Source: Psammoneis japonica (taxonomy: Eukaryota). Taken from it: 64,000 bases of DNA. The position numbers and the translations under genes were made by a program. Positions 2,250 through 43,059 of this stretch are shown here, piece by piece; position 1 is the first letter of the stretch; each line of letters opens with the position of its first letter. The stretch spans positions 372,001-436,000 of the forward strand of contig QPGO01000044.1 of assembly GCA_008632985.1 (NCBI GenBank). Direction: 5' to 3'. Under the pieces are notes generated by a model, which ran no database searches, was not told the DNA's origin, and was given only the letters and a program-made list of their open reading frames with translations.

Positions 2250-2830
2250 GCAAACAAGTTTGCTGCACAGCATGACATTGGAGTTGTGACTGCCTTTTCT
2301 GAAAACCACATGCTTGGAAACACATCCATGATTCACACCTTGGATTGTGGTCAACTGTGGGGGGCCACTTTTCACTTGTTTGTCATGAGAAAAACAAGAA
2401 AAAACAGCTCTGACTTCACAAAACAATTTTTTGGCAAAAATGGAAATGACACTTCTTGGTGCACATGTGATTGTGGTGAAGTCTAGAGCAGCTGTCCACT
2501 GCACTGTTGGAACTGCAAGTTGTTGGTGGCTTTTCATTGCATCACCAGAGCAAGTTCAAGAAGCAATTTGTTGCTGCAGTTCAAAGAAAATCTCAAGGTT
2601 TGGGCCAACAACATGATGTGGGATCAGGGCTGCACATTTGCGGGCTGGTGCACTGCTGCATTGAGCATGGGCACAAGGGTGCACATTGACATGTGCAAAC
2701 ACTTGAAATGATCTAGAATGGGTTTGTGGAACTTCACAAGATTGCAGCAACACACTTTCTCATTGACTGGACAACCACATTTTAGTCCACAAAGCATTGA
2801 TGCCATGGATCAACTGTGACACATGAGTCA
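2250..2830 (+). pseudogene. Hypermutated copy/paralog of the DUF1647-like gene at 7879
   Basis: Collinear with 8040-8620: KANKFAAQHDIGVVTAFSENHMLGNTSM vs KANKCTPQHDIGIVTAFSENHMLENISM; FKENLKVWANNMMWD vs FKENPTVWANNMMRD; multiple frameshifts. Confidence 0.92.
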
Positions 2831-5666: not shown

Positions 5667-5669
<3 letters not shown>

Positions 5670-5711: not shown

Positions 5712-5718
<7 letters not shown>

Positions 5719-19326: not shown

Positions 19327-19778
19327 GATAAGTGTGCTTTTGCAGCAGAAGATGACGTGATTGAAAGGTGTCAACGATCAAAAGAACGCGTTTTGATTGT
19401 CATCAGCAGCTTCGCGCTTATGTAGCTCTCTCGATGAAAAAAGATCCCGCGATTGCGATTTCTGTTGGTCAACATACCAGTTCCTACGGTACGTCGTATC
19501 ATAGAAGAAGCATTGTCTATCGCGCGCAACCGTTCGAGCGACTTTTTTCGCGCAGCTCACGCATGTCGCTGCGATTTTTTTTTTCGTCGCAATTTTGACA
19601 ACCAAGGGCGAATTCTGCCTCCATGGCGGTCATTTGCCGTCTTTTGTCATAATGCGGCCTACTTTTCGCTCCATCAAAGGCTTTCATCATTTTTCATGTT
19701 GTTTTGAAGGGGCGACACTGTGGCCGGCATTTCTTCGCATGTGCCGTCACCGCCTTGGTTGGGACTGACTGTCCCAAA

Positions 19779-20800
19779 ATGCATGTGTGTCGAAACGGCG
19801 CACCCTGCGATGTCCTGAAAAAGACAGAATTGGTGGAGAAGTGCAAGGAGCTGTGTGACCGCAATGATGACAGATTGCAGCCGTCCTGGGTGGAGCTTGG
19901 ATGAGCAGTGAAAGTCAGTGACAAGTGGGCCAAGAAGGTCATCATGCATGGAGCTTCGCAGCGAAGAGGGGCTCGTTGACCCTTGCTGTCAAAAGCCTTT
20001 GAGACACATGGGGGCAGGAGCACTGACACTCAACCAGGACAAGGCTTTTTGCTTGATTGTGCTTTGTTGCAAGAACCCTTCCCGAGTGCTGAGAAGCCAC
20101 CAGACGGAACTCTCTTTGTTGCACTGGAACACTTGCATCACAAAGCACAGCATCTCTCGTGTTGCACTGTGGCTTTCCACATTGGCAAGGGAACTGGGCT
20201 TGGTTGATTGATGAGTTCAGACCCAACAATGTTGAAAGAGCCATTGAACATCTTTGAGCAATTGTGCAACTTGACCACCGGCGTGTCAAGTTTGCTGATG
20301 AAAAATCTCTCAAAGGAACAGAGCTCTTCAACCAAAAAGTCCAGCATGATCCACTCAATGGAGAAACGCCATCCATTGTGACAGACTCTGACTTTTGCAA
20401 TGTTTGCAACATTGTTGGTTTCTGCAGTGTTGACCAGTCTGCCAACCCATTCTTTTTCTGTCCAAATCAAGATGCAAATGATTCTGTGGACTTTTCCATT
20501 GCTGTTGAAAAGGCCATTGTGTGTCAGGCTTTCTGCAGCCATGTGATGTGCTTGTTTGTGACAATGCATGGATCCATGTTGCTGGTGACAATGACACCAT
20601 GGATGAATGGCTGTGGACAACTTTTGAGTTGGTCTGGTGTTCCTCCCCCACCCCAAGCCCCTGAGATGAACCCAACTGAGCCGCTGTGTGGAACCATCTT
20701 GTGCATTGCCTTTTGTCTGCCAGTTTGGATGACCGCCTTCTCTGGGGTGAGGATCAAGTGGCCCACGCACCACAGCCATCACACAGGCATTCACACACAC
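19779..20800 (+). mobile_element. Degenerate Tc1/IS630-like DDE transposase
   Basis: VKFADEK (first D, about 20297), DNAWIH from DNARIH (about 20560), MDEWLW, APEMNPTE (SPELNPIE-like, E at about 20678); stops and frameshifts; terminal inverted repeats not found. Confidence 0.8.
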
Positions 20801-21049
20801 AGATGTGGAGTCTGCATGCTGCCACTGTGGCCACCTGGTCTAGATTGCAAGAGGTGGAACTTGCGCAAGCTGTGGATTTGGACTGTCATGTTGTGGTGTG
20901 GTGTGCAGAACAGTGCAGTGTAGAATGGAGCACATTGTTCATCACGCTGTGCCAGGGCTGCACAAATTGAGTTGCACATGTGGCTGCCTTGCAGCACCTG
21001 CAAGACAAATCCTTGTGTCAGTGCAATGCAGTGCATTGCGTTGGGCGGC

Positions 21050-21170
21050 GCTCTGCTCTCTGGAGCTGGAGAGTTGCTCTGCTCCAGACTGGCAGCTGGC
21101 AGATGCCACCACTCAGTGGTGCTTTGCTCTAGACTGGCAGCCAGCAGCCACTGCCACTGGCAGTGGTGGT
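21050..21170 (+). repeat. Short imperfect tandem repeat, about 50-bp period
   Basis: gctctgctccagactggcagc at about 21076 and gctttgctctagactggcagc at about 21121. Confidence 0.6.
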
Positions 21171-21659
21171 CTAAACAAATGCCAGAGCAATGGTGGTTGC
21201 CTGTCAATGATTTTACAATGGCAAGTGCTGGGCTGTTGTTGGCTGCCACCAAAAAAGAAATGCAGCTCAGTTGAAAGAGACAAGCTGACATGCTTGACTT
21301 GAAATGCTGAAGCAGAAGAATTCAATGAAGTGCACACTTGTGCAACAGTGCCATCACACACTGAGTCCCCACAAGCAGGGACAGCAATGAGCTGTGCCAG
21401 CAAGACTGGCTGTTTGGGTGAGTCTGACAGAGTGGACGACCATTCTGTCAAATCTGCCAAGACATGATCCAAGGGGGTCAAAGCATCCAAAGCTCCATCT
21501 TGGGGAGTGACATGCCCAGCCATTGTTTGGTCTGCAGAGACACAAGGCACCTCAGCATTGGTCTGTTGGGATGATGGCGCAGGAGCAGAAGCCAATTGAG
21601 CAGGCAAAGAAGTTGGAGGAGGAGGAGGAGCATTTGCATGCTCCAATGCCTGCTGCAGC

Positions 21660-22215
21660 TTTTCCCATGCCACATCACCTGTTGTGGAGTTGTGACAGAA
21701 GGGCTTGCCACTGGCTGCTTTGGTGGCACAGGTGGCTTGGCATTGGAGCTGGCCAAGGCACTTGCAGTGGAGGAGTTGTGGTTGGAGCTGGACCGGGATC
21801 AATCCAACTGCTTTTCCCGGTGGCATCACTGCAGGAACACAACTTGCCACTTTCATGATCATGACATTGCCCCCAATCTTGGGCAGCATGGACATGAGGC
21901 ACCATGGGGCTGGACAACATGTTGCATCTTTTCCCAGCTTGCCACTCCCATCACAGTGGTGCTGACACAGAATGTCCTGTTGCTGGCAGTGTCACAGTGT
22001 CACTCCAGCTTTGAGGGGTTGCTTTTGGAATGGAGGTGGAGGTGCAGTTGGAAGCACAGTTGCAGGCATGGCCAGAGGCACAGTCAGAGGCAGGGGCTGC
22101 ACCAGCAGTGGCTTGTCCCACCTTGCTTCCCCAGTTGTGGTGTTGCAATGATGCAGTTTGTTGCAGGTGCTGTCATCTGTCATGTGTGCTGCTCTCCAGC
22201 CCTGGGGAAGCTTGT
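21660..22215 (-). pseudogene. Fossil gene segment with two WW domains and Pro-rich linkers
   Basis: LPQGWRAAH..NKLHHCNTTTGEARWDKP (about 22110-22212) and SGKPFCHNSTTGDVAWEK (about 21660-21740) match the WW consensus LPxGW..GrxYYxNxxTxxxxWexP with Tyr replaced by His/Cys. Confidence 0.85.
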
Positions 22216-25200
22216 CTGGTGATGGAGGTGGTGGTGGCAAACCAACACCAGTGGCAGAGATTGAGCTGCTGCACGCATTGATGGAATCCCAAAAGCCAGC
22301 AACCTTGCTGCAACCACTGCCCAGTGTTTGCTGTCAAATGATTGTGGAGCAAGGCAGCCAATGGGAGTTGGAGCAATGGCAGTGCTTGTGGCACACCGTG
22401 CACAACACTCAAAATGAAACAAGATGAGACAAGATGAGATGAGACAACACCAACTTGCCATGCCTTCCATCAACCACCATGAGAGTCAACAGGGACACCC
22501 CAGCCACAGCCTTGGTTGTGTTGTTGAGATGTGAGAGCACCTGTGTGAATGTTCTTGGTGGCACATTTTGACTCTGCTGCTTCTTGTTTCAGCTGTGCTC
22601 TGTTCTCTGCTGCTTGCTCTCACAGCTGAGCTCTGCTTTCCTGGAGAGCAAGTTTGTTTTGGAGCCATTGGTTCTTCTTTCCATCTTTGCACATTCAACT
22701 GAAGCTTTGTCTGATGCTGCTTTCTCCTGGAGCTTTTTCAAGGCCAGACACTTGCTTGCAAAGCTTGTTGACTTCCAGTGCATCTTTCTCTTCTTGCATT
22801 CCACCATCAAAGATTTGAGGCTGTTGGTGGTGATCTTCTTGGATTGCAAGGAGGTGTCCTTGCGATTGATGTCATGCTGCAATCTGTTGATCCCAGACTT
22901 TGCAGTGTCAAGTTGCTTTGATGACTTCTCTGAAATTCTTTGCAGTGGAGTGCACGGTTGCTTTTTCCAATGGTGTTGTGACGTCAAGAGCCACAACAAC
23001 CAACAGTGTGCCATGTCTTGTCAGCTCATGTGCGGCAGAGTTGACACGTGACAGCGCAACGGGCTTGTTGTTCACTTGTGCGGTCAAAAAGCAATTGACA
23101 AAAAATGAACATTTCAGCTGTTTTTGCTGCAATCAATCAACATCAAAGCACACCAAGCACATCCACATGAAATTGGTTGCATGCTGTCAACACATGTCAG
23201 TGTCATGGTGAGCTCATGGCTGTTGATGGAACACTGCATTTGTGGTTGCCATTGTTGTTGTGCTTTGACAAGTCATGGAAAATTTGAAATGTCCATTGTT
23301 TGTGTTGCAAGAAATGCAAAACACAATGCAGGTTCTTTGCATTGTGCAACAAGTCCACATGTTTTGAGCACAAGCGGCTGTCACATTGTGCAACTTGACA
23401 AAATGACAATGTGTTGGCATTGATTGCCAAACACAGTGCTCACCAAGATCCATCTACAAACACTGGGCTTGCTGGCACTTGGATGGGCCGGCTCCACTGC
23501 ATCATTTGGCAAGGACAGTCCATTGGATGGCTGCCTCAAGAGGCAACAGAAGCTTGTGGCAGCTCTTTTTTTGTGTCCCCAAACAATGCACCCGTTGAGA
23601 AATGCCTTTTTGATGGTGTTGACTTTGGAAGCAATCCATGGGGTGTGTTTTCAGCAAGACAATCACCTTCATTCCTGGGAAGCGGGTGGTGCGGAGAACG
23701 TTGCACAAGTCTTGCACTTTGGACTTGCCAACGCAGAAAAGGAAAACTTTGAGACCAAGCTGAAAGCTGTCATTGGAAGCTGCAGGTCCATGGCCTTGGC
23801 ACAATGACCAAGAGGTTGCTTGAGTTCTGGCTTCAGCAGAGCAACTGTCCAGACCCACTCTGAAAAAATGGGTTTGCTGTTCTGCCTGTCATTTGCAGCA
23901 ATGCAATTTCACAAGCCACGTGAGATGATGGAAAAGGCACATGAACAACAGAAGAAGAAGTGCAAAACATTTCCCTCTGCCGCAAAACTGGTCTCTCTTT
24001 GCAAAAAACCAAAGGCAAGCAAGAACAAAAATCTTGCATGGGCAATGATTGTCAAAAATCATGTTCTCAGGATGGCAGCGGCTCAAATCTTTTGGTGGAC
24101 CAAGAGGTCCCTTGCACAACAAAGAGATCTCCTCACAGGCACAATTTGTGGCAGTGACGCACTTCAGCATCATTGTCTTCAATGGTCGTAACATCAGATG
24201 CTTGTCAAAACATTTGCCTGCACATTGGTGGCTGTTGGCAAGGAACTTGACCAAAACAATGTTCCCCAACTTGTCTGGGATGAAACAACAGAGGGCTCCG
24301 GTCTTGGTGCATCCACCACAACAAACAAAGTTTTGACAGTCTGGATGAATCTTTACACCGTCCAGCACAATCTCAGCTGGGACAGTGCCAAGCTCATTCC
24401 TCGCCACTTTGCAACCAAGAACCAAGCCCAGTGTTGAGCACTGTCCTGCACACTGCAGTGTGTGCGGTGTCATCACAGGGGTGAGGATTGCCAAAGCACT
24501 CCATCTCTGGCTCATCATGGCGAACATCTGCATGGAACCACAGATGTCCACAAGCACAGACTTGATCTGATTGCGGGTGACAAGGTTTGTTTCTTTCTCA
24601 AAAATTCAAAAACTGACTTGTCATTTTGGGACTTGCTCCCTGTTCTCAAGCACTTTGTGCAACTAACCACAGGCACCAAAATCAATCCCATTCCTTTTCT
24701 CTGGCTGCTTGGACCAACAATTGTCACTTTGCTTGTTGCACTTGTCATTCTCACAAAGGGCAATGGAGCAGCTGTGTTCAAATGCAAAATGAGCAATCAT
24801 GCCAACATCAACTTGGAGAGATCCAAAGTGTTTCCACCAAAGATGTGAGGAAGAGCACAAAATGGCGGCATCATCCTGGATGTGTTGAGCCCTTGGGGGA
24901 CAACCACCAGCTCCTGATCATGAGTTGCAGCAGAAGGAAGTGGTTGCATTTTCTCAAAGGAACAAAGATGATGGCACAGATTGTCAAGCAGGTGACAGTC
25001 AGCTGGAGAATGATGCAAGTTTGGCTCATGATTGGTGGATTGCTCGTTGTCCTCATCATTGTTGTCCAGATCATAAAAACCACAAATGCAAGGAGCACAT
25101 CTCAAGACATCAGCAGGTGATGCAAAGCTGCAACAATGACCACAGGGGAACCAATCATGGATTGACAAGGAAGTTTTGTGGAGCTTGCTGATGTGCTGGC

Positions 25201-27349
25201 TTCAATGGAGATGCTGCAGAAGCAACTCCTGAGGATGGACCAACAGCGCCGGTGTCGGGGACATTCTGAACTGGGTCATTGTTGTTTGATGAACCACCTG
25301 CAAATGGCAAATCTCTGTCTTGCAATGACTCAACTGCATTGTCAGCTGAAGGTTGCGACTGGGAGGCAAGCATGCTGATGGAGCAATTGGCAGCTGGAAG
25401 GGCATTGGCTGTGGTGCTGGTTGGCTGAGCAACAGGATTCTGGTTGGTGTTGTTTGTGGATGAAGCAGGCGGAGGTGCCAGAGAACCAGCCGACACAGTG
25501 GAGGACTCCTTGCTCTTCTTCATCCTCTTGGTGGAAGAGACAAACTTTGCCTTGGCTTCACGGGAAAGGTGTGGATGCATGAGATTGTGGACACGTGACC
25601 GCACAATTGTCAGGTTGTGGAACTAAAAACAATTCATGTCCTTGCAGGAATGCTTGAGGGTGGAGTGGAGCTCACGTTCAACCAACTCTTGGCATTTTTG
25701 TGCCACGCCTTTTGCAGAGGCATGTGTGTTGATGCAAGCCTTGACACATTCCACATGGTTGGCAAGGATCTTCTTGGCAACCTTCCCATCCTTCAACTTC
25801 TGACCTGTGCTCATCAGGGCAGAGCATTGTTGCAAAACAGCACAAACTGTTTCCTCTTTTTTCAGCTGGAAAAAATGATGATGAACCAGTGTCAAAAATC
25901 ACTGAACTCTTTGTTGATGTGAGGCAGAAAGCAACAATCCATCATGGGGGCAGCGGTGCTCAGGCATTGTGCAAAAAAGCCCAACTTGGAATGGAAGCTC
26001 TGATGATCCACAGGAAGCAAGGGTCATTGCCAAGTTGACTGTGCACTGTCATCTTTCATAAATTGTCAATGATTGCACAGAGATTTTTGCCAAACTGGGG
26101 CAGATTGGAAAAGGTTTTGGCCAGCTTGCGGTGCTCCAGAACACACCTCCCATCTTTTTGGCAGAAACACAACCACAGCCACAACTTTTCACAGAATGAA
26201 AGCCATTTTTGCTGCCAAGAGAATGGGCAACTGTGTCATTGACCATCAACACTTCCATGAAGAAATGGGGGGGCTCGATTCATTCTGGCAGTTGCAATGA
26301 ACAAAGGGCAGAGCAATGAGGTTGGGGGAGGGAGTCTCCATTCAGAAGTCTCAAGAAAGTGCTGATGACGGCGCTGTGTCTCGATCATTTTTTTTAAAAT
26401 TGAGCCTTGGTCATGTGGGCGCCGCCAACACCGTTGGCGCACACTTTGGCTTTGTCGTCCGGCACAGAACCATCCCTTTTGTCCAAAGAATCATCGTCTG
26501 TGTTGTCTTCACTGGGAAAAGAAAGATTGCTGGCACAACCATCAAGGTCTCCAGATGCAGACAGTGCCCTGGCATGAGAGCTGCCTTGGCTGGTTGAGTT
26601 GTTGCCATCAGACATGGAGTCATTGTCAGAGCTGAGATTGATGTCATCAGAGAGGCTTGCTGCCACATTGGAGGGAGACAAAACATCGAGCAATGAACCG
26701 TCTTGGTCAGGAGATGTGACAAAGCAGAGCGCAATGCCAGTTTCACATTTGGTGTCACATGCTTGAACAAATCATCAGAGTGAGAAGAGAGACGTTGCTT
26801 TCACTTGGGCATGACTTTGAGCCAGGGCATGATTGCAACAGCAGGAGAGGCAAACTGCCATGGGCAATCATGGCATGAACAACGGACACAGAATCCTGCA
26901 AACTGCTGGTCACACTGCTTTGACAGCTCTGCACTGATTCGCCAAAAACACAGGCAATTGGATCTGCAGATCACAAGCAAAAGGGAAAAATGTCCCATGC
27001 ACAATTGCTCAGGCAAGTGGTGGAAATGAAACATTGTGACTCACCAGGAGGAGGGGTCTTGGAGGGAAAGCAAAAAAGGTGAAAATTTGGCGGAATGATT
27101 GGCACCCATCATGAGGACAGAAATGCAGAACTTTCAGCAAAAATGCCACACACAATTTGAAAATGAATGTTTTTCAGTTGGAACAAAATGCAGCTGTTCA
27201 TGGTTCAGGCAATGATGCAGCCATGTGACTTGGCATGTTGAATTGAACAAAATGTGTCTGGGTGCAACACAAGTGCAAAACACACCAATCAGCAAAGAGA
27301 GTGTGAACAAAACTGTTTCACTCCTGACAAGTGAACATTGAATTTAATC

Positions 27350-27369
27350 CGGGGGGGGGGNGGGGGGGG
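27350..27369. repeat. Poly-G run containing an N (possible assembly join)
   Basis: ggggggggggnggggggggc. Confidence 0.85.
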
Positions 27370-30300
27370 CAACCAATGTTTGTGCAAGTGCGCATGCCAT
27401 GAGATGGTGGGGTTCAATGACCTGTGACTCAAGGCCTTTTCCATTGGTTTTTGATGACTGTTGAGGGGGAGAAACAGCTGAAAGCAAAGAACAGTCAAAC
27501 ACAAGATTGCACGTGGATGCTTGGCTGACCAACACCACCAACAAAAGCAAAAAACCAGCAAAAAGCTCATGCAGTGACAAGGTGGCAGCATTCATCAATG
27601 ACAAAACAGACTGTTGGGGGCAATGCTGTGTTTGCAACAGATTCAGAGTCTGCCCCAAACTCCCCCAGGAGCTGTGGCAAGCACATCATGGGCTCCCTGG
27701 TGTGTGGCCACTGGCAGCTGACAAGTGCACCAAACAACGCACTGCAGCTGCTCTGCATCAAGTGACAGATGTGTGGGTGGATGGCTGGTTGGATTTGGCA
27801 AAATCACCTGATTTTGGTGAACTGAGAATCTAGACATCCGGGTTCCTTTGGACAGGTTAGACAGCCACCACCTGCGCTGGTTGCTTCAGGTTCACACATC
27901 ATCACCTCATGTTTTTGTTTGAAGCTGCACGTTGTCATGGTGCATGACGTGGCATTTTGAAGTTGCACCCCTTGCAATGTTCAGAGCAGCAAAAAACAGA
28001 GCATGCCCCACCACAGGACTTGATCATTTGCAGATCAACAGCCACAACATTGACCAAGATGAGAGTGCAGTCACACCGCTGTTGAGCAGTGCTTGTTTTG
28101 ATGGCTGTTCTGGATTTCTTGGCACTGTTGATTGTTGTGCCACATTTGGACACACAACATGTTCCAGTCCCAGGTGACACACAAAATGACAATCCATTTT
28201 GAACATGAGTTGCATGTCTCTTGTGTGTGAAGCATTTGAACATGAAATGCTTGGGGGCAGATGGCTTTTGCAGGTGCTTGGAGTGTGCACACATGCAGTT
28301 TTCTTGTTGGCATTCAATTCCTCATGGGACATGTGTCACAAACTCTCTCTGCAGACTCAGCGCTGATTGCATGTCAGTGCATTGGATGCAGATTTTCAGT
28401 TGCAGGTAGAACACCTGCCAGAAGGTCTTGCAAAAAAAATTGTTTAATTTGGCATCCAAACCATTGCAACAATTTTGCCGAAAATCATCCATTGTGTTGC
28501 GATTCATTTGTTGCAATGAAAACACAGACAGTGCAATGACAATCACATTGCAACACTGATGCGAGCATTGCCAGTGTTGCAAAACATGCAAATTTGAATG
28601 AATCCACACTTTTGGTGGTGAAAGCTTGTTTGCAAGTGAGAGACTGCACAAAAATTGCACAAATGTTGTTTTTGTGCACGATTTGGGTCAAGTGCGGCTG
28701 GAACACGTTGCACAAACAAGCAGTGTGTTTGCTGACTTCTGCAGGGCTCTCACGACCGCTGTGCAAATGAGTCTGCAATCAATGGGTTTGTTTCTGCTGC
28801 AGATGCAATTGTCAGCATCTAAAGAATGCAGGTGTGTGGATGGCATCATTTTTGTTTCTGTCAGTTTTCCATGACAGATGCAGAAAATGATGCTCTGATT
28901 TCCAACGTCAACAGCGCGGATCTGTCCCCATGGTGGGAGCCACCCTTGACAAACAATTGGCTTTTGGAAAAGCATTTTCATGGGGGCCCTTTTGTCATCA
29001 TTCCTGAGAATTGCACGCTCCTCACACAAACTTTCCCACCAAAAATGGGAATGACAGCAGAGAACATTGAAACAACCAATTGAACAAATGACATTTGTTG
29101 ACATCAATCTTTGCTTCAAATTTCAACATTGTCATTCTCATTTTTGGTTGCGTCAATTTACATTCAACATTTGAAAGAGGATTCTGAAGTTCTTTGCATC
29201 CAATGCATGTGAAAACACTTTTTTGATCTGAAGTGATTTCTGCTGTGGGGAGAGATCCCGACAGGGATCAGTGCACCGTGCATGACACAGAGAAAAGGAA
29301 CAATGGAATTTTTTTTCAAAGAGAGAAGAGGAGCCAACTCATGCAGCAAATGCAGTTGTTGGATGCTGCAAGCTGCACACAACAGCTGGTGCCTTGTTTG
29401 GAACATTTTTTGCTTCCTCATCAAAGTGGCAGCAGCAACCACAACACCTTGCTCATTTTTGCTGCGCAATGCAGCATGTGGTGTGCTTTGTCATGGGACA
29501 GTGCATGAAACCAAAAGTGCAATGGATGGGAGCTCCCAACCATTGGCAACTGGATCCATGAGCTGGTTCCAAATTCATGCTCAAATGGACTGGAGCGGCT
29601 GTCCTTCGTTGTGTCTGCACGCCATCTGCACGGAAACTGATTTTGCCACCAGCGGACACTCTGACTGGCCAACCACCCGTGTGCACCAAGGAACACTGCT
29701 CCACTCTGACAATGCTGTTGCCAATGGACACTGCAGCACACCTGAGACTTGGTGACAGCTTGTGTGTGCAAGACATGAGTGCTCTTTGGACCCTGACTGA
29801 GGAAGGTTGGTTGTTGGAATTGTGCAAGCGGCTGCTGTCACAAAGCACACCACCATCACAACAGAGATTGACGGCACTCGTTTCCAAAAGAGTCTTGTGA
29901 AAGTGCAGTGGAGGAACTGCGCACAAGCTCAAATGCTGCTTGTGTGAAAGTGATGAGTGGTTCATCCCATCATTGAGGCATGGGGCACAACCCATGCAGC
30001 AGAAAGTTTGGCACAGACAGCACGTTCTTGTGTTGAGACAGCTCTTGTTCCTTTGTGCAAAAGCATGGCTTTGAGGCTCACCTCCACCCCAAAGGCCGCA
30101 CAAGCTCACACATGCAAAGTGATCCATTCAACAACACCAAGCAGCACTGCAAATGAAATGACAGAATGATGAGAATGACTCAGCAGTCAATTGACTGATG
30201 ACAGCAAACCTGAAAGCAGCAGCAACAAATCACAGCAGTGACATTTTGACACAAAAGTGTGCACTGCTGCTTCATTGTTTTCAGATGCATGAACAGGACA

Positions 30301-31518
30301 TGCCAAAATTGCACCCTGAAAATCAAAAAAACATGAGGGCACTGACAGGCAACAAATGTTGGGGCAAATGTCCAGAGCCACGGCTGGTGATGGCCGAACT
30401 CCAACAAAGAATCAAGTGACATCAAATGCCATCTCATGCCCCACTGCCCTCGTTGGCAATGTTGTGCCAACCCAATGTGCACCCAAAAAAAGGAACAATG
30501 ACAAAATTTGTCAGCAAGCTTGATCTTTCTAGTGTTGCTTTGCCATTGTTGACTTTGATCGTGGTTGCAAAAAAGTCCTTTGAAGACTGGCACAAGCTGA
30601 AGAAGAGAAGAGCAGAGATGACAGAAAAGCTGGACATTGTTGTCAAGATTTGGGAGCCGTGGCATGAGCAAGGCCAGCCATCAGTGACAAAGGGAGCCTG
30701 AAAGTTCATCTGACAGCAGGCTTGATTTGCGAAAAAGCGTCTTGAAATCTGGGAGACAGAGGTGCTTGGAGGTTTGCGCAAGAAATTGCGCAGCAACATG
30801 CTGCCTGCTGATTGCACAGATTTCCATGCAACATGAAATTATCCACATCCACATTTTGGACGCGTTCCAGGTCTAGGTGGGACCTCGCACTGCTGAACTG
30901 TGACATCGATAGTTTTTTGAATCACGTCGTATGTCGCGCACGTAGATTTCTACGTGATTTTTTCGATATTTTGTGTCATTTTACGGTACATTTAATGAGC
31001 GATCCGTCCAACAACTTTTGACATTTTTTGTTACAGCGCGATTCTATAATGTCTTAAGAATCGCGTAGGGCAGGCGCATTTGCAAAAACGTCGAGTGGCA
31101 AGAGGCATAATTGTACCACAAACTTGGCAGTTATTTGATGTTGAAGATAAATATATCCATTAATTAAATTCTCGTACTACGGAGCTCGCACGTAGAATTC
31201 TACGGGCCCAATGTCACACGGAGTCCCACCTAGGACTGGAACCCGTCTTTGGACCTCTTGTCTCCCGAACGCTGGGGCGTGAGGTAGAAGGTCATGCAAA
31301 AAATCATGTAGAAGCATGCCACTGTAGTTGCTGATTATGTGGATTTCGACATGTGACAAAAAATTATCCACATCTTCAATCTGCAGCACTCTAGAGACCT
31401 CTGATCTCCCAAACGCTGGGGAGAACACTCCAAAGCAAGCAAGGGAACAAGAACGAGGAACACAAGAAGAAGGATGGCCACAATGGAGACAGAGCCAGAA
31501 ACACCGATGCAAATGCAA

Positions 31519-31700
31519 ATGGCCATCCCTGATGTCTTTTTGTGTCATGCTGGCTGTGGAGGACAAAAGGCGGGCATCGTGTTGCTGGTCTACGAAGAAT
31601 TGAAATGCCGGAGCATCACAAATGTGTTCTTTGACAAAGAGAGCTTGAGAAAATGGAACATGGAGACATGACAACACTGGATGCTGCCATGCCAATTCTT
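31519..31700 (+). pseudogene. TIR-domain N-terminal fragment
   Basis: MAIPDVFLCHAG..QKAGIVLLVYEELKCRSITNVFFDKESL resembles the TIR start DVFLSH..D/K..L...L...VFFD. Confidence 0.7.
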
Positions 31701-31759
31701 CATTGAAATCTTCCAAAACCCTTCCCATGCAAGATTTTTGTCCCACTCATCAACCACCC

Positions 31760-32200
31760 ACAGAGGGAGCACTGGCAAGAATGTGATCTGCCAGATGTGA
31801 AAAGGGCAAACTCTGCAACTGAACATGCCAGTGCCCCACAGTGTCGCCACAAGCAGAAACATTTTTTCCCCTCTGAGTGGCATGCTTTTCAAGCCTGGTC
31901 GTGTCACAAATGAAGCGTGCTGTGACACAACCCTTTGTCAAGAACTCACAGTTTTTCACTGCACAACTCACACCTGACAAAGACACCAACAACACAAGCA
32001 CATGCAATGCTGTTGCCCTTTGACTTTTGCAAAAGGCACCCTCTCCACCAACACAAACCTGCTGCACACACACAACAAGACAAAAGCTCTTCCTTTTGAC
32101 AAACCAACTTTTCTCCATGGGCACCCACATTGACTGGAACAACAGCTCTGATTTTAAAGCCACAAACAGCACTTGCTTTTTCTTTCTTTGTGGACTTTGC
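31760..32200 (-). pseudogene. Hypermutated copy/paralog of the AIM24 gene at 38764-40144
   Basis: Collinear with 38850-39320: VVPVNVGAHGEKLVCQKE vs [40 protein letters not shown] vs [22 protein letters not shown]. Confidence 0.92.
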
Positions 32201-34570
32201 TGCTCGAACCCCTGTCTTGCCCACTCGGAGCAGCAACGCATGAGCTGTGACTTTTTCCAGAGCATCAAGTGCCACCACAGCCATTGTCATCCTTGTTGCT
32301 GAAGGCAGCAGCTGAGTTGAAGGCTCCAGAGTGTTTGCTCTCTGTGAAGGCATCTCTGGCCATCTCGGGAAATTTGGTGGCACAGCAGTGGGAGGGACAG
32401 CAGCAGCTGATGTTGTGTTGCTGTGGCACAAAACACAGAGCAAAAAAGCGACTCTCCTTTTCACCAAGAAGCAAAGCAAAGTTGTAAAAAGAACGGAACA
32501 AAAAAGTGGTGGAGGCAGACGGCCAAGGGTGCCCCAGTCTTTGATTCTTGAGAATCCTGTCACTGCCACCAAAGAGGTGAATTCTTGTGAATCGGTGAAC
32601 CTGATTCACGAGAATGCGTGACTCACACATCACATGTCACATGCTGTCATTCACAGACACATGTCCGGTCACGCAGGCAGCTCTGATTTCATTGAAAAAA
32701 GAAGAGGAAAAGGAGGAGAAGAGGAGAAAACACCACACGTTCAATTCACATGCATGACGGCCAGATGTTTTACGACATTCCTGCTGCTGCAAGAAAAGAC
32801 TGAAACAACAAACCAACCATGATGCAGCAACAACCAATGCTTGATCTTGCCACCAAACCTTTTCCTGCCAAAAATGCCAGTGCATGACATCCACAATTTG
32901 CTGTGACAAAGTGTGTCAATGGCAAGAGATGTGAGAGAACACACCCAAAAATGGGCAACAAAAGCTCCTTCCTGCTGCAGCTGCGCTGCTGCCCAGACTC
33001 CAGATTTTCACAACTTTGATGTTTCTCTTTGGCAAGCATGGCAGTGAAAAGAGAGGCACCAGTGTGCTGCCAGAAGAAAAAACTCAAGCAAGCGTGGCAA
33101 ACACAAAGGCCCTTTGCATGGCTTTGCCACAAGACTCAGGTTCTCAGCTCTCACAAATTGTGCACTTCAATCCAAGTTTGCACTTGACAGATTGAAGACT
33201 GACTCTCAGCAATCAGGTGTCAGGTTCTGCTGTCACACTGCACCTGTGAGCGGCAGCGCCAAGGGCTGCTTGGCAGCCCAGCAGCCAGCTCTCTGTGAAA
33301 GAAAATGGTTGCAAAAGGAAAGGATCTGCCTGCTACAACACAAGAGACAAGCAATCAAGAGTGCATTTTTCTGTGATTTGGTGTCAAAGGAAATGTGCTT
33401 GTTTGTGAGTGCTGTGCTGGCAAGATCAGCTGTGGGGCGCAGCCAAGCCAAGCCACCATCACAGCAGGGGCTGGCCTCCTCTCATGATGTTGGCACTGGG
33501 AAAGATCATGCAGCTGTGACACTGCAGCAAATTGGCATTTCTGTCAGCTCTGCATGAAAAAATGATTGCAAAAGGAAAGGAGCCATCTGCAGTGCAAGAG
33601 ACAAGCAGCAGCCAAGCTTCCTGTGTGGCGGTGTGGGGGACTGCTTGAAGCACTGCAGCAGCTGTGCTCTGTGCTGGCCATCCAACAGAGATGAAAGGAC
33701 CATGATGTTGGCTGCAAGATGAAAGGACTGTGTTGTTGGTCACAACTGGCGCCAAACAAGTGCGGGAAATTTTCCTTTCACAATCCGAGGAAATCTGGGG
33801 CTGAGAGAGGAGGAGCCCCCCCGACCCAAAACCCCGCTCATGCTCACATCTTGATTCCCCCCTCATTGGCTTGTTAAATGAATGAAACAAAGAGGCTTTC
33901 CTCTTTTGTTTTGTTGCACAATGTGTGCCAGATTTGCCACGCCAACTTGAGCTTTTGTGGGCTTGCTTCGAGCACGTCACACTTGAAGAAACCCCCCATG
34001 GCAGCACATCTTTTTGTCCTTGAGAAAGTGCCCCCCAATGGTGTCTGCCTCACTCATTGAGTGCATTGCACAAAAAGAGGTGTTTTGGTAGCCAGAGGCT
34101 CTGGACAAATCAACTTCTAGATGAAAGGATCATGACGGTTGCAACTGCACATTGAATTGCTAATTAATTTTTCCTTTTCTTAGTTCCTTGTATTTCCTTG
34201 TCTAGGGAAATTCAGCGCCAAATAAGGAATTCCCTGTGATCGAAAACCCTAAAATAATGATGCAGTGATTGGTACGTTGACAATGATTCCGTCTGTGGAG
34301 TCGCTATCAAATTCGTACCGGAAAACCATTATGTGTGTTTCTACTTGTCGCTATCAAAATGGAATTGTGTCGTTATCAAATTCTACACAAACCCTGGTAC
34401 ATTTCCTACACAGTTTATAAAGAGCTACCAGTACCTACGTACGTACCCTGGACGATTGCCTTTTGGTGCGAGGTTCTCGCTTCTCGCCGAACAGCAGCAA
34501 GCAGCAAGCGAAGCGAGAAGTAGCAACATCTTCTCTTCATGCTTCGTCTTCCTGCCTGCATCTCGACGAA

Positions 34571-37500
34571 ATGAGACACCGAGAACTACGACAGGATCCG
34601 GCGTCTCACGCTCTGTGGGCGCTTTTAAGCGGGACTGTCGGAGCGATTGCCGCTTGTTTTGGCAAGTTAGCTTTTTGGTTGGCCAGGAAGGATGGGGACG
34701 CGTCGCTGTGTCCGACGGCTTTTGTTACGCTGTGGAAGGACTGTCTCATGGGCTCATCACTAAGCGAGAACACATCATCCTCGCTCGACCTCGACTTCCC
34801 CTCATGTGCACTGACCTGGATCCAGTACCATGGATGGACTGTGCTTGAGTGCCTTTTCTGTATCGGGGTGTTGCTTGCCAGTAATGCGGGCAGGCTGAGT
34901 TATTGTTTCGTTGGTGGTATAGAGGAGTGCGACAATAACATTGAAGGAACGGCGTTGGCTACTTTCCTCGTGACTTCATTGCTCGGCCTCGTTCTGTTCC
35001 AGGATTTTTTCGACACTGGCTGCAGCGACGGGATGGAGCGAGCCTTGAATTCTTTCATCGTAATACTCGTCACGGCTCTCGCGGCACCCAGGCGCAACCC
35101 AAAATATGATACGACATGGTTGCACGACGGAAAGAGGAAGCAAGTGGGAATTCTAACCTTGCCGAACGCTGGGCGGCGTTGGCCCATGAGCTCGAAGCCT
35201 CTTGTTTTCATTTCTCACACTGGACATGATAACGTCAAAGAGGATATTGGGAGGCCGACGTACTGGTACCTGAAGAATATTTTGCAAGTCGACGCCTTTC
35301 TTGATGAGTCATCAACGACGACTGGGGATACCAAGTTGGAAGCGCTCGTTCCTCCTGCATACCAGTGTACTCATGCCTTGGTAATTCTGTCACCCTCATA
35401 TATCAAACGCGAGTTCTGTGTCAAAGAACTTAATCTCTTCATGAGACGACTGCGCAGTAATGATGGGATCCGCGTGCTTCCGGCTCTATGGTTGATAAAA
35501 AATGCAGATGGTTACCATCCAGATGTAGGAGACTTGATATGGATTCGTCACGATACGCCAGCTGCAATCAAGTATATGGTTCAGACGCTCTGGCCGGAAC
35601 TGTCACTTCTGTTGGACAAAGGCGAAATCTCAGAACGCAAATGCGAGGAAAGCCTTGTGAATTTTGTGGAAGAGCACCGTCGTGGGCCAAAGAGAGCTTC
35701 CCAAGATCAATTGGAGTTTGCAATGGACCGCGCTTTACCGCAGCTTGTCTCCGAGACAGATAGCGTGTCCTCTTCCTCCTCATCTACATCATCAGAGAGC
35801 GACAGTTTGGTGGCAGGAGTCATGTTCTCGAGAATCTACAAGGATGAAGACCGTGAATGGAACACAAGAGTCTACAAGATGAAGCGCCAAATTCAGTACA
35901 ATCTGAGATTGATTACGAAATACGGTTATGTAAGAGATGGCGATATTTATATGAAAAAGAAGGGCCTGTTTCGAGGCGTTGTAACGCTCAACTGCCGAAT
36001 CGAACTGGGAGAGAGTTTGACGGACAATGACCGAAAAGAAGTCATCGAGGCTGCTAAATCGATTGCCAGAATGCTACGCGAGGCCGGAACAACAGAGGCC
36101 GAATTAGAGCACATCATGGTTGGACATGCATGGAAAGGATCGCTGCAGATTCTCCTTGAGGCACGCACAGCTACTTTCGAGACCCTGTTTGCATTGCTTT
36201 TGAAATCTGGGTTTAACATGCCTCTTCATAATGGCATGGCACTGGTTGATTTGACACCGGCATTCGTGGTTCGCGGTGCCCTGCTAAAGTCAATTCCTGA
36301 CAAGCGAACTGATGTTTTGCTCTTGAAGACAGAAGAAATTGAATTTTTGCTCCCAACGTCGCCATGGTCCAGAAGTGAACTCTTGTCTGGTGGCATACCG
36401 TATGGGGATTGGGAAAACCCGAACATATCGGTACAGAAACAATTTTTGACGACGTCAAACTCATTGGAGGTCGTTGACGACACACCCACAGAATTCAACT
36501 TACACTCGAGGTGGCTTCAAGAGAAAAAGGCTGTGGGCGAGGTTCTTAAGCAACGGAAGAGGGAGCGAGGACCGCCCAAGGAGGGCGACGATGAAGATGC
36601 CAAAGCTCGCAAGGATGAAGAGGAAGAAATTAAGAAACTAGATGATGCTCAAGACTTCCGTGATTATCATCAACGCAAAATCAGAGATCATCTCGAAACA
36701 ATCAATGACTACCTAGGAGTGGGAAAAGGCTTGAAAGCTATTCTCTTCGGAGAAGAAAGCTTTTTTGTCAGGAAACAACGTATTCGAGATTGGGCGGAGA
36801 TTATGAAACAGGCTGAGATTGCCAAAGATGCTAAGTATCCCGGCTACTACGAGGCGAGAACGGTCGATACCGCTCGAATTGGCTGCCTTGTTTTTGTGAA
36901 ACGGGTGTGTACCGTTGCGGAAAAAGATGCGGTGGATGAAGGAAGAGAAGTGTCCTACAAGGATTTTTTTGGTACCCAAGAGTTGCAGACGATTCTTGAG
37001 ACGATTCTTCCAATGGACAAGGCCAACGCGCTGTTCAAAATAGACGCACTCTGGTATTCAGCGGGTTTCATTGGCGAGAAGTGGAATCTCACGAACGACA
37101 CGCAATCAGATCAACTCATTGAATTGCAGAAAATAAAAAAGTGGAGAGAGATACGGGAACGGAGAGAGTTACCCAGCGGAAGACCGGATGGCGCAATCAG
37201 CGGCAAGATCTTTCGTTTGGTATTTCACCCCACCGAAGGGTTCGACCACCTCAAGTGCTGGCTTCGGCCCACCGTGCCTCCGGACTTCAAGCCAGATTTC
37301 GACCTTCGCTGGCGAGATTGGCTGCATTGGATTTCATCCCTCATCACTGTCCTGTGGCTACTTGCACTCCTCCTTCTTCCAGCAAACATGGACTTAATCT
37401 GCAAACTCGGCGTTAAGGATAGTGCATCCGCTCGATCCCCGACCCTTTCTTCTACAATGTCAGAAGCGTCAAGCCTCACCATAAATGATCGAGACAGGAA

Positions 37501-38491
37501 ATGTGGTAATGGGTGTACGTCGCCATGTGCCTGTCTGGAAGCAATCAAGACCGGTGTACTCCTATTCTCGCTTTCACTAGTACGACTGAATTGGATGATC
37601 CGAAAAGCCTTTGTTCACTTTTCCGCTGGTCCAGTTGTAATGCTATTCATTGCATTTCTTTTGGCGATGGTTATCGACTCTTGCTATGATTTCGAGTTCA
37701 AGGCATTGTCCTTCTCGTTTTTTCAGTTATGTGGGGTTGGCTTTCTCATACGCAACACACAATTTGTTATCATTGACCCTTCCAAGCTTTGCTCCTACCT
37801 CGCAAGCATCTGCAGGGCCGTTTTTAGAGATACCTTTCAGCAAGATTATTCGGATCTTGCATACGCAACTTGTGGCACCTTGTTTACATTGCTCATTCTA
37901 TATTGCAAGGGGGAATTCAAAAAGGAGGACGATTGGTTGAAGATCCGGTTAGTTTTGTCATGGCTTTCGTTTACGGAGTCACAATTGGACTGGCCATCTT
38001 TTGTCCCACCAACGGTGCAAGATCTGTTTGCTATATTAATCTTTCTTTTTTGGACGGCATGCTTGATATACGCAAGACGGTGGTTCATTCGTGACCTCCT
38101 TCTTGAGGTATGGGACTTCTATCGCTTTCCACAGCCGAAGGTGCCGACATTATGGAGAAGAAGGACCAGTAGGCGTATTCGAGCCACAAAGCTCAACATC
38201 ACACGTTTTGCAACAAACAGTGTAAAATTTATTTTTTCTAGTTTATGGTTAGCCTCTTTCGACAACACGACTTTAGAGGCTATGTACGGTGGTGACAAGA
38301 CACGGAATAATAGGTGCGAAAATCGAACTTGTCACCACAGCGACACGACGGAGCGAGCAATTTCCAATTGTTCCGGAGGCAAACTCGCCTTTTATTGCTC
38401 CAACAAGTGTCAATTACAAGATTGGAAGGATCGGCACCACGCAGTCTGCAAACAAGCTAAGATAGCGCGAGCGAAAGGCGCGGACAGGTAG
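34571..38491 (+). CDS. Large chimeric protein: N-terminal multi-TM region + TIR domain + unknown region + multi-TM region + C-terminal MYND-type zinc finger
   Basis: Intact 1342-codon ORF (likely ATG 34571); TIR: PLVFISHTG..DAFLDE..LVILSPSYIKREFCVKEL..VLPALW; MYND: CENRTC..CSGGKLAFYCSNKCQLQDWKDRHHAVCK. Confidence 0.85.
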   Translation: MRHRELRQDPASHALWALLSGTVGAIAACFGKLAFWLARKDGDASLCPTAFVTLWKDCLMGSSLSENTSSSLDLDFPSCALTWIQYHGWTVLECLFCIGVLLASNAGRLSYCFVGGIEECDNNIEGTALATFLVTSLLGLVLFQDFFDTGCSDGMERALNSFIVILVTALAAPRRNPKYDTTWLHDGKRKQVGILTLPNAGRRWPMSSKPLVFISHTGHDNVKEDIGRPTYWYLKNILQVDAFLDESSTTTGDTKLEALVPPAYQCTHALVILSPSYIKREFCVKELNLFMRRLRSNDGIRVLPALWLIKNADGYHPDVGDLIWIRHDTPAAIKYMVQTLWPELSLLLDKGEISERKCEESLVNFVEEHRRGPKRASQDQLEFAMDRALPQLVSETDSVSSSSSSTSSESDSLVAGVMFSRIYKDEDREWNTRVYKMKRQIQYNLRLITKYGYVRDGDIYMKKKGLFRGVVTLNCRIELGESLTDNDRKEVIEAAKSIARMLREAGTTEAELEHIMVGHAWKGSLQILLEARTATFETLFALLLKSGFNMPLHNGMALVDLTPAFVVRGALLKSIPDKRTDVLLLKTEEIEFLLPTSPWSRSELLSGGIPYGDWENPNISVQKQFLTTSNSLEVVDDTPTEFNLHSRWLQEKKAVGEVLKQRKRERGPPKEGDDEDAKARKDEEEEIKKLDDAQDFRDYHQRKIRDHLETINDYLGVGKGLKAILFGEESFFVRKQRIRDWAEIMKQAEIAKDAKYPGYYEARTVDTARIGCLVFVKRVCTVAEKDAVDEGREVSYKDFFGTQELQTILETILPMDKANALFKIDALWYSAGFIGEKWNLTNDTQSDQLIELQKIKKWREIRERRELPSGRPDGAISGKIFRLVFHPTEGFDHLKCWLRPTVPPDFKPDFDLRWRDWLHWISSLITVLWLLALLLLPANMDLICKLGVKDSASARSPTLSSTMSEASSLTINDRDRKCGNGCTSPCACLEAIKTGVLLFSLSLVRLNWMIRKAFVHFSAGPVVMLFIAFLLAMVIDSCYDFEFKALSFSFFQLCGVGFLIRNTQFVIIDPSKLCSYLASICRAVFRDTFQQDYSDLAYATCGTLFTLLILYCKGEFKKEDDWLKIRLVLSWLSFTESQLDWPSFVPPTVQDLFAILIFLFWTACLIYARRWFIRDLLLEVWDFYRFPQPKVPTLWRRRTSRRIRATKLNITRFATNSVKFIFSSLWLASFDNTTLEAMYGGDKTRNNRCENRTCHHSDTTERAISNCSGGKLAFYCSNKCQLQDWKDRHHAVCKQAKIARAKGADR

Positions 38492-38763
38492 TATGATTGA
38501 AATGCTTGCACACAACTTTCGGTAGATATACTGGAGGATTCGGGAACAATGGAAAAACACTGATTCTAACGTTTGTTGTAGCTAGTGAGGAGTGCGGTTT
38601 CTCCACCAGTACTTTGTAACGGAAACGGCTGAACGACAATTCATGACGCCGTGAAGATTCCAAGAAAACACATCATTGATTCGTCACTACTTTGCGACCT
38701 ATGAAAGTAGTCAAATATGAAATAGAATAGAGAAATAATAGTGGGAGCTATCAAGCTAGTTCG

Positions 38764-40144
38764 TTATCGAAATCTTCCAAAACCGTCGCCATCAATCAGG
38801 TCGCCAAACCCTCCTGTAAGATTGCTGCCTTCACCCGTTCGACGACCACCCGCAGAGGGAGCATTGGCAAGAATGCGATCTGCTAGACGCGAAAAGGGCA
38901 AACTCTGTAACCAAACAGTGCCAGTCCCTGGAGTGTCGCTAAAAAGATTCCTTCCCCTCCAAAAAGTATGCTTTTCAAGCCTGGTGCCAGTTCCACACTA
39001 AAATCAATGCCGTCGGTAAACGCCACGACACATCCCGTGTCAACTCGTAATTTTTCTCCACGCAATTCTCGCCTGACAAGAGTACCACCCGCATGAATAA
39101 ATGCCATTCCGTCACCCTTTAACTTTTGTAGAATAAAACCCTCTCCACCAAACAAGCCACTGCCGAGACGCCGGTTGAAATGAATCGAAACCTTGGTGCC
39201 GTACGCCGCACACAAGAATGCGTCCTTTTGGCAAATCAACTTTTCTCCATGGGCACCCATATTGACAGGAATAATGGTCCCTGGATACGGAGCCGCAAAC
39301 GCCACTCGGTTCTTTCCCTGTGGAGCCTCGTTGGTAAAGTGCGTCAAAAAGAGCGATTCACCCGTAAGGAGACGTCCAGCGGCTCCCAGAATTTTTCCAA
39401 AAAATCCCTGCGATGGATTGGACCCATCGCCTAGCTTGGCCTTGAAGCTAATGTCATTTTCCATAAACATCATGGCACCAGCTTCGGCAATCACCGTTTC
39501 GCCGGGATCCAGCTCGACTTCGACGAGTTGCATGTCGTTGCCCTTGATTTCGTAATCCACCTTGTGACATTTTGTTGGATTGCCTTCGCTTATCGTAGTA
39601 GAGGCAGTCGTAACCTGTGTGGCTTGTATCGGTGCGCTTGAATAAACGCTACTGTCGTATTTGCTTGGATAGGTTGTCGTCGTCGAGGTAACGACAGCAC
39701 CGGTATTATGATTGGAAGAAGAATAAGACGGAGTCACTGGTGGAGGACGTCGAGAGCTGTACTGAAATCAGGAACTCGTCCTTGTGTTTTTGCTTGCTGT
39801 TGAGCCGAATTCTGCCCGTAGCTATTCGATGCCGTTGATGGTGCATAAGAGTATGGTGTCGATGATGAAGAGACATTCGTTGTACTGTTCGACGGTGGCC
39901 TTGTCGAGTAGGTTGGTACTGTCGAGGTACTGGTGATTGGAGGGCCATAGGCAGAAGTCGAAGACGTCGCAGCGTAAGACGAAGACGGTGCAGCGTACGA
40001 AGAATAGGTATGCTGCTCTACCGGTGCTGTTGGTTTTGGAGATGAACTTGAATAGGTTGTTCCTGACGTTGCTGTTGTCGATGACGCTTGTGGTTGCGTG
40101 CTGCTGTATTGATACACTTGGGGAACATAAGGAGCCGCGACCAT
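38764..40144 (-). CDS. AIM24: AIM24 (TIGR00266-like) family protein with a Ser/Thr/Tyr-rich N-terminal extension; frameshifts near 39740 and 38930
   Basis: [79 protein letters not shown], then [15 protein letters not shown] in the next frame. Confidence 0.9.
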
Positions 40145-42877: not shown

Positions 42878-43059
42878 GGTTGATTTTGTTTTGTTGCCCT
42901 GGATGGTGGATGTTATCCATAGTATTCAGTCATGTATGCTCTCAAGAATCATTTTATGAATGCTTGAAAAAAGATTACCAGTAAAATCATAATAGCATAT
43001 TAATTTATCTCAAGAATGAAGATCAATAATTAAAATTAACAGCAGCAAATGCCGCCTGT

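Follow-up and report, generated by a model that had tools for sequence, protein, structure and literature searches.

Position rather than duplication as the probable basis for one-sided loss of CpG and TpA from a truncated AIM24 copy in a diatom genome

The DNA considered here, termed the window, is a stretch of 64,000 nucleotides from the diatom Psammoneis japonica (GenBank assembly GCA_008632985.1, contig QPGO01000044.1, positions 372,001 to 436,000 of the forward strand). Viewed in 1-kb bins, it is an alternation of normal DNA and blocks that are nearly free of the dinucleotides CG and TA. One of these blocks contains a dead, 5′-truncated fragment of an AIM24 gene (31651..32202, minus strand), comprising the last ~186 codons and ~55 bases of 3′ flank; the AIM24 gene that it resembles lies to its right, in normal DNA. 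The fragment is homologous to this gene, is the derived member of the pair, and alone carries the damage. The footprint of the damage spans the surrounding domain, the fragment itself is low in copy number, and paralogues that are equally diverged, and that lie in normal DNA, have escaped. The likely explanation is that an old, truncated copy of the 3′ end of AIM24 has been rewritten because of its position in a repeat-rich, presumably silenced domain of ~14 kb, and not because it is a duplicate, by transition processes at CpG and TpA that have run nearly to saturation.

The AIM24 pair and the direction of change

The gene at 38773..39767 (minus strand) belongs to the AIM24/TIGR00266 family. 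Its open reading frame (ORF) matches Pfam PF01987 with 230.8 bits (cut-off 25.7) and E = 1.7e-68 over profile positions 1–196 of 205. The homologues found for it number 8000, several of them named as TIGR00266 family; the best match is 75% identical, and Cylindrotheca fusiformis, the only one named by organism, is among the close homologues. The initial annotation had described this gene as intact, but it has no uninterrupted frame in the assembly. Six homologues aligned by tblastn follow frame −3 down to about 38926 and then frame −2 to a stop near 38773–38775, and one base of a conserved glycine codon, GGC, is missing at 38925/38926; the dead copy retains that base. The ~52 codons past the frameshift are open, though out of frame, and are 72% identical to one homologue (P0003). 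The frameshift may reflect an error of the assembly, or else a lesion of very recent date. The CG and TA content of the gene is normal, and its intergenic flank of 284 bases contains 20 TA and 13 CG.

The parental segment that matches the dead copy (38720..39333, minus strand) takes in the 3′ part of the coding sequence and the 3′ flank. A pairing of 31760–32200 with 38850–39320 had been proposed initially; the pairing is real, and its true extent proves slightly wider, 31651–32202 against 38720–39333. Five before-and-after strings quoted in support of it were all found where the initial annotation had placed them. Homology is evident by blastn in two segments, 31753–32059 against 38845–39158 (69.9% over 326 columns, E = 2.3e-30) and 32091–32142 against 39223–39274 (90.4% over 52, E = 4.4e-14). 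A transition-tolerant local alignment of 31716–32202 with 38806–39333 scores 279.5, compared with a maximum of 31.5 in 20 shuffles, and a collinear extension to the left, 31651–31715 against 38720–38779, scores 44, compared with a maximum of 34 in 200 shuffles. No homology was found on the other side, past 32202 (score 22.5; shuffle mean 23.0). Scoring schemes that reward transitions, or that do not penalize them, align everything and were discarded.

The dead copy is matched in tblastn by six AIM24 homologues (best E = 8.5e-15), five of the six in two frames. It contains one in-frame stop, at least two frame changes and 41 gapped codons, and ~60% of the coding sequence, at the N-terminal end, is absent from it. 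Family similarity, disabling lesions and derived states together identify 31651–32202 as a pseudogene fragment of AIM24. Because it is a truncated 3′ fragment, mutation was not needed to inactivate it; what is seen is a dead fragment, and not the demonstrated loss, through mutation, of a gene that was complete beforehand.

Polarity was examined by aligning the parent protein with 40 homologues. The 187 codons examined include 85 that are identical in parent and copy, 42 that are gapped or unknown in the copy, and 60 that differ. The parent is nearer the outgroups at 52 of the differing codons and the copy at 6, with 2 ties; the copy is thus the derived sequence, and the direction of change inferred in the initial annotation is borne out. 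Arginine and tyrosine codons have turned into cysteine or histidine codons in the dead copy. Within a core of 468 aligned bases, a single CG is kept from the 24 of the parent, 18 of them being now CA or TG, and none of the 13 parental TA is kept (11 are now CA and 1 is TG); the copy's own content in this core is 2 CG and 1 TA. Compared with a pair of TIR paralogues in normal DNA, described below, the difference is pronounced for both dinucleotides (Fisher p = 9e-7 for TA and 2e-9 for CG). The claim of one-sided inactivation therefore divides: the damage is indeed one-sided, confined to the copy and absent from a parent with normal CG and TA, but inactivation cannot be credited to it, given the truncation.

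Counted per base over the full stretch 31651–32200, the changes comprise 15 TA>CA, 5 TA>TG, 12 CG>TG and 11 CG>CA. Counted as dinucleotide steps over the full pair, the 20 parental TA have gone to CA in 15 cases and to TG in 4, with none kept. Loss of TpA is an A:T>G:C change, and it is more complete than the loss of CpG. A further feature of the spectrum is the double flip, CA↔TG, which is seen at 9 of 57 steps in the AIM24 pair and at 9 of 91 in a second pair described below; among the TIR paralogues of normal DNA it affects 3 of 176 steps (Fisher p = 2e-4 for the AIM24 pair and 4e-3 for the second pair). Since a flip has to pass through an unstable CG or TA intermediate, the process must have continued beyond its first pass.

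The second pair was recovered by a self-search of the window in purine/pyrimidine space. Its dead copy lies in another hypermutated block, at 2201..2827 (plus strand), and its parent at 7993..8623 (plus strand) within an ORF, 7855–8799, that has normal composition and no Pfam family. Transversions amount to 5.7%; only 1 of 39 parental CG and none of 19 parental TA are kept, and 15 of the 19 TA have become CA or TG. The two members are 5.8 kb apart in the same orientation. The statement that two of the blocks contain dead duplicates of adjacent host genes is sound, since this second pair, 2201–2827 against 7993–8623, is real.

The transversion divergence of three pairs in the window is equal (5.7–5.8%), which might suggest a single duplication burst; no such claim is made, because one of the three pairs is coding and under selection. 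A third mutated/unmutated pair, of ~95 bases (30767–30858 against 31285–31383; score 68, shuffle maximum 28.5), flanks an inverted-repeat element. It was not used, because its polarity is unclear: at some sites CG is found in the mutated copy and TG or CA in its partner.

Origin of the fragment

The dead copy lies 7.07 kb to the left of its parent, in the same orientation. Homology does not end at the stop codon but takes in ~55 bases of the parent's non-coding 3′ flank, which points to the neighboring AIM24 locus as the source. This flank homology, together with the orientation that both dead copies share with their parents and the 5.8–7.1 kb that separate them, makes the local origin suggested in the initial annotation likely. 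For two parents to lie within 10 kb by chance is very unlikely; with an assumed genome size of tens of Mb, the estimate is ~1e-4 for each. As to how the fragment arose, the best guess is that a small segment was duplicated locally, or that nearby DNA served as the template in a repair event.

On its left the fragment meets a low-copy repeat at a true junction, as indicated by a contig of run X2 that matches up to 31652 and then continues in unrelated sequence. The left flank, 31540–31652, has one or two other genomic copies, ~96% alike. One of these copies continues past 31652 into sequence that contains CG and TA, as a loose end in run X2.

Capture by a transposable element (TE), which had been offered as an alternative to local duplication, is not shown: of the expected marks, namely a TE domain, a terminal repeat, a target duplication and poly-A, none was found. 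A search for flanking TE termini, which the initial annotation had recommended, found no terminal repeats or target duplication. Nothing convincing in the way of a poly-A/T tract or a target-site duplication was seen at the junctions, where the only match is one of 8 bases in purine/pyrimidine space.

It is rather unlikely that the fragment derives from a different AIM24 paralogue, or from capture of a gene by a transposon, and that its nearness to 38720–39333 is coincidental. Several features would suit such a source: the pair is only 75% identical, the 468 aligned bases including 27 transversions and the alignment 79 gap columns; the copy is nearer the outgroups at 6 codons; and the DNA on the right is repeated from 32505, as the left flank is in one or two copies elsewhere. 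Against such a source, the homology reaches into the non-coding 3′ flank of the 38720–39333 locus itself, and the copy has the same orientation at a distance of 7 kb, a geometry repeated in the second, independent pair. The fragment is present at single-copy depth, no other contig on it is at least 80% alike, and terminal repeats, target duplication and TE domains were not found.

The depleted domain and its internal controls

The composition of the window is best described by ratios of observed to expected dinucleotide counts (o/e). Normal 1-kb bins have CG o/e of ~0.8–1.3, TA o/e of ~0.4–0.7 and CA/TG o/e of ~1.0–1.3; in depleted bins the corresponding ranges are 0.03–0.3, 0.00–0.1 and 1.7–2.0. 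The depleted bins fall roughly at 1–7000, 20000–34000, 43000–44000, 51500–54000 and 57000–58000, and their GC content does not differ from that of normal DNA. Pooled depleted blocks (22,154 bases) have o/e values of 0.16 for CG, 0.04 for TA and 1.84–1.91 for CA/TG. The values for non-ORF DNA of the normal blocks, defined as bases outside any ORF of at least 100 amino acids (5,653 bases), are 0.91 for CG and 0.65 for TA, and a mild under-representation of TA (o/e about 0.55–0.65) extends across the window.

The domain of interest is TA-poor in two parts. The left part, 19651..30850, has TA o/e of 0.00–0.05 and CA/TG o/e of about 1.9, and encloses a narrower CG-poor zone at ~20201–30550; the right part, 31401..34050, contains the dead AIM24 copy. 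Composition changes abruptly at the block edges, over no more than a few hundred bases, and the edges of the domain lie at ~19.65, 30.85, 31.4 and 34.05 kb. At the domain edges the TA-poor zone extends ~300–550 bases past the CG-poor zone, and at the left edge of the 20–34 kb block the segment 19660–19974 holds 15 CG and zero TA over ~300 bases. Elsewhere, 43101–44700 is TA-poor, yet stays above the CG-poor threshold (CG o/e 0.35–0.76 in 1-kb bins). The footprints of TA loss and CG loss thus differ, which argues for two separable processes.

An improbable alternative is that the cell detected the AIM24 duplication and mutated one of the copies, in the manner of repeat-induced point mutation (RIP). 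Two mutated blocks do contain copies of genes 5.8–7.1 kb away, and repeats dominate part of the block, with a summed depth of ~580–2500 at 32505–34611. Yet the chemistry is the opposite of that of RIP, since TA is destroyed and not made (TA o/e 0.04; TA>CA/TG), and the change affects one copy only, where RIP affects both. Four internal controls together favor a domain-targeted process over a RIP-like one, and duplication as the trigger, as it might be understood from the initial annotation, is not upheld by them.

The damage extends beyond the duplicated 552 bases into low-copy flanks. One contig of 1612 bases spans 31220–32831 without a difference at a depth of 32.9, unique DNA elsewhere having 31–56. 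Summed depth is 33–79 in the bins covering 31301–32504, which indicates that the AIM24 fragment is single-copy, and the repeated DNA is that of 32505–34611. The non-AIM24 flanks of the fragment are of low copy number, the left flank having one or two other copies, yet are depleted just as strongly; the mutated region therefore reaches beyond the part that was duplicated. According to the main text of a preprint on the alga Bigelowiella natans, taken up below, the target of hypermutation is single-copy there also.

Duplicates in normal DNA, by contrast, are undamaged. The negative control is an unmutated TIR/MYND paralogue at 15083..16891 (plus strand), compared with the segment 36542–38271. 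This pair, both members of which lie in normal DNA, differs by 98 transversions in 1717 bases (5.7%) and by 6.3% transitions, and keeps 62 of 88 CG and 47 of 65 TA, symmetrically. Since paralogues as diverged as the AIM24 pair are undamaged, duplication alone is insufficient.

The ORF that contains the second segment (34463..38491, plus strand) has normal composition and encodes 1342 amino acids, among which the domains TIR_2 (E = 2.9e-8) and zf-MYND (E = 7e-5) are recognized; this ORF and the AIM24 gene are convergent neighbors. Three paralogous segments with TIR and MYND-finger sequences occur within 23 kb (15065–18290 and 34463–38491). They are 83–88% identical, are all of normal composition, and represent a local gene-family expansion that escaped the mutator.

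High copy number is likewise insufficient, unless the element concerned is simply younger. An element of 389 bases at 30859..31247, bounded by 25-base terminal inverted repeats (88% complementary), has a summed contig depth of 176,745, compared with about 33 for unique DNA, and is unmutated despite its location inside the block. The unmutated island to which it belongs, ~30840–31400, also includes ~150 bases of low-copy DNA to the right of the element. The element resembles a miniature inverted-repeat transposable element.

Very unlikely is a history in which hyper-edited AIM24 mRNA, with A-to-I and C-to-U changes, was reverse transcribed and inserted as a 5′-truncated processed pseudogene. 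The copy is indeed 5′-truncated, its end ~55 bases after the stop is a plausible mRNA 3′ end, and the excess of TA>CA over TA>TG on the plus strand (15 to 5; p = 0.04) places A>G mostly on the sense strand. The flanking non-AIM24 DNA, however, is equally depleted. Moreover, 5 of the 20 TA changes fall on the other strand, the CG changes are symmetric (12 to 11), and the junctions lack a poly-A/T tract and a target duplication. The second pair has no sense-strand bias (9 to 6), and a general sense-strand bias, whether due to transcription or to RNA editing, was rejected on this account. The copied portion of the parent is free of introns, which makes an intron test for a retrocopy uninformative.

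Another alternative is that mutation is biased against CG and TA throughout the genome, so that neutral DNA simply decays and genes stay normal through selection only. This would suit the absence of recognizable genes from the mutated blocks and the mild TA deficit seen everywhere (o/e about 0.55–0.65), but is hardly credible, since non-ORF normal DNA keeps its CG (o/e 0.91) and TA (o/e 0.65), the blocks begin and end abruptly over a few hundred bases, and the parent's 3′ flank and intergenic DNA are TA-rich.

Several observations weigh against the explanation that an old AIM24 copy was rewritten by position. The copy matches the outgroups at 6 of the 60 differing codons, and the parent has a frameshift that is absent from the copy; thus the parent has also changed, or the copy was taken from an allele or paralogue that differed slightly from it. 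Although no other contig on the fragment reaches a likeness of 80%, a closer parent that is less than 80% alike could exist elsewhere. Transition-tolerant scoring may inflate the number of transitions in weakly matching stretches, for which reason blastn serves as the independent check on homology. The unmutated 389-base element could be younger than the last episode of mutation. Repeat depth and composition are the whole basis for speaking of a silenced TE domain, and the 36 and 55 ORFs scanned are without a TE protein domain.

The spectrum of change itself is also less clean than the dinucleotide counts suggest. Of the 132 mismatches in the AIM24 pair, only 43 are direct CG/TA conversions; 31 are transversions, the other 58 are transitions that fall in other contexts, and the alignment has 104 gap columns besides, so that much of the divergence is ordinary decay. 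Transversions in the core reach 5.8% (27 of 468), with 75% identity and 79 gap columns. These transversions and gaps, and the small number of direct conversions, indicate that the AIM24 duplication is old and does not offer a clean before-and-after snapshot. Transitions outside pyrimidine–purine steps amount to 13.0% in the AIM24 pair and 6.4% in the normal paralogue pair, a pair that is coding and under selection and thus not a clean neutral baseline or clock; CA↔TG flips account for part of the excess of other transitions. The TA changes are strand-biased, 15 to 5 (p = 0.04; 11 to 1 in the core), though the bias is weak in that the second pair, at 9 to 6, does not share it.

The depleted blocks are rich in long spurious ORFs, because the stop codons TAA and TAG both contain TA, and these ORFs could mislead gene finders. 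Between 19.5 and 34.5 kb, 38 ORFs of at least 120 amino acids overlap the block, for example 20138–24605, and none of the 36 that were scanned has a Pfam family; the Pfam search of these 36, from 19.9–34.8 kb, returned zero families at E ≤ 0.01. A second Pfam search, of 55 ORFs of at least 75 amino acids from the blocks at 1–7 kb and 31.4–33.5 kb, gave three sub-threshold chance matches only. Scans of the whole window for tRNAs and for Rfam families gave 0 matches each, and a look for RNA evidence over 31000–40000 found no entry. Near the right end of the window is an amine oxidase gene (61313–63493, minus strand), whose organism-labeled matches, 11 of 11, come from diatom genera (35–45% identity).

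The proposed process and its relation to known systems

If the fragment was rewritten by position, its history might be reconstructed as follows. A small local duplication, or a repair event templated off the nearby gene, would have placed the AIM24 fragment in the domain, and the parent, 7 kb away in normal DNA, would have been spared. In methylated silent chromatin, deamination of 5-methylcytosine would convert CpG to TpG or CpA, a chemistry that fits the strand symmetry of the CpG loss. Conversion of TpA to CpA or TpG could result from deamination of adenine to hypoxanthine, which is read as G. The agent may be a TadA/ADAT2-like deaminase guided to silent chromatin, as the main text of the preprint proposes for B. 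natans. The process would be long-lasting, newly arising CG and TA being resolved again, and CA↔TG flips would be the outcome.

The contexts of surviving sites bear on the nature of the enzymes. They were counted in the mutated blocks at 1–6900, 20300–30500, 31650–33900, 51900–54000 and 57200–57900, and are end-state counts from a single window. None of the 61 surviving TA lies in the context RTAY (R, purine; Y, pyrimidine), where the contexts around CA/TG precursors would lead one to expect 24% (p = 8e-8), and 39 of the 61 lie in YTAR (TTAA, CTAA/TTAG, CTAG), compared with 21% expected (p = 6e-13). Surviving CG, 207 in number, favor GCGC (2.1-fold over expectation) and avoid TCGA (0.32-fold). 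Such biases suggest sequence-selective enzymes rather than chemistry alone. The absence of RTAY, the excess of YTAR and the depletion of TCGA furnish testable predictions for the deaminase or methylation system responsible.

A broader proposal may be put forward tentatively. Diatoms might possess a DNA-editing defense that is guided by chromatin, acts by position and not by homology or copy number, and erases both CpG and TpA within marked domains. Its TpA arm would be a DNA adenine deaminase that destroys RTAY and spares YTAR. Given the chemistry reported in Rhizaria, it could be ancestral to the stramenopile–alveolate–rhizarian (SAR) lineage, and fragments of host genes that land in such domains, the AIM24 piece among them, would serve as calibration standards for its spectrum and duration.

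Among known systems, Pack-MULE and Helitron capture and the formation of processed pseudogenes leave fragments of host genes within transposon islands. The AIM24 fragment resembles these as a truncated piece of a host gene set among repeats and dead on arrival. It differs from them in that a carrier element, terminal repeat, target duplication and poly-A were not found, and in that the fragment is single-copy.

The RIP of Neurospora and other fungi converts C to T at CpA and so makes TpA; it needs duplication and mutates both copies. Common to RIP and to the process seen here are dense transitions that kill repeated or foreign DNA, a dinucleotide signature, and spill into adjacent sequence. 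Unlike RIP, the present process destroys TpA (A>G), affects one copy along with low-copy flanks and unique DNA, and leaves duplicates in normal DNA untouched. RIP is the subject of the RIPCAL paper (PMC2621366).

A parallel for the CG half of the process is the decay of methylated CpG. A study of Phaeodactylum (PMC9998398) reports that, when DNMT5a is lost, methylation disappears and young TEs are de-repressed, so that CG methylation restrains TEs in a diatom. As in 5-methylcytosine decay, CG>TG and CG>CA are about equal on the two strands, in DNA that is presumably silent and rich in repeats. Simple decay of this kind explains only the CG half, however, and does not predict the excess of GCGC or the deficit of TCGA.

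The nearest relative of the TpA half is found in B. natans, where integrated giant-virus and virophage DNA undergoes TpA hypermutation (Mettrop et al., bioRxiv 10.64898/2026.01.13.699255). In the main text of that preprint, new mutations are reported for two viral inserts, both silent and single-copy; 230 of the 231 are A>G or T>C, those that are GC-biased fall on TpA, and an ADAT2/TadA-like DNA adenine deaminase is proposed (10.64898/2026.01.13.699255). As far as that text describes the system, these features are shared: A:T>G:C change at TpA gives TpG/CpA, TA is depleted and CA and TG enriched, the regions are sharply bounded (silent in B. natans and presumably silent here), and single-copy targets are affected. 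There are differences as well. B. natans is a chlorarachniophyte, within the Rhizaria, whereas the window is diatom DNA. CpG has 0 mentions in the main text and diatoms are not named there, whereas CpG is lost in the window as well (23 of 24 in the AIM24 copy, 38 of 39 in the second pair). Depletion is partial in a viral insert of B. natans (rho TpA 0.45, by the same text), compared with an o/e of about 0.04 here. The main text has no host-gene fragment from which to judge polarity and no context beyond TpA. Rates were measured in B. natans, according to that account, and only the end state is seen in the window.

Full-text searches, covering papers open without subscription, found no account of TpA erasure, or of combined CpG and TpA erasure, in diatoms. 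Within the same literature TpA>TpG/CpA hypermutation is described for B. natans only (10.64898/2026.01.13.699255), in whose main text CpG loss does not figure, and no description was found that includes CpG loss. Targeted A:T>G:C hypermutation of DNA in eukaryotes has so far rested on this single 2026 preprint and on one alga.

To that system the AIM24 pair adds a host-gene standard polarized by outgroups, controls that set position against duplication, the flip signature, and the contexts of surviving sites. It supplies a proof of polarity that is independent of transposon consensus sequences, and evidence for location rather than duplication as the trigger. It also gauges the extent of the process, with 0 of 13–20 TA and 1 of 24 CG left, and with flips that reveal continued action. 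If confirmed, these findings would extend the process known from B. natans to a major group of phytoplankton, and would be relevant to the study of naturally occurring DNA adenine deaminases, enzymes that attract interest in connection with base editing.

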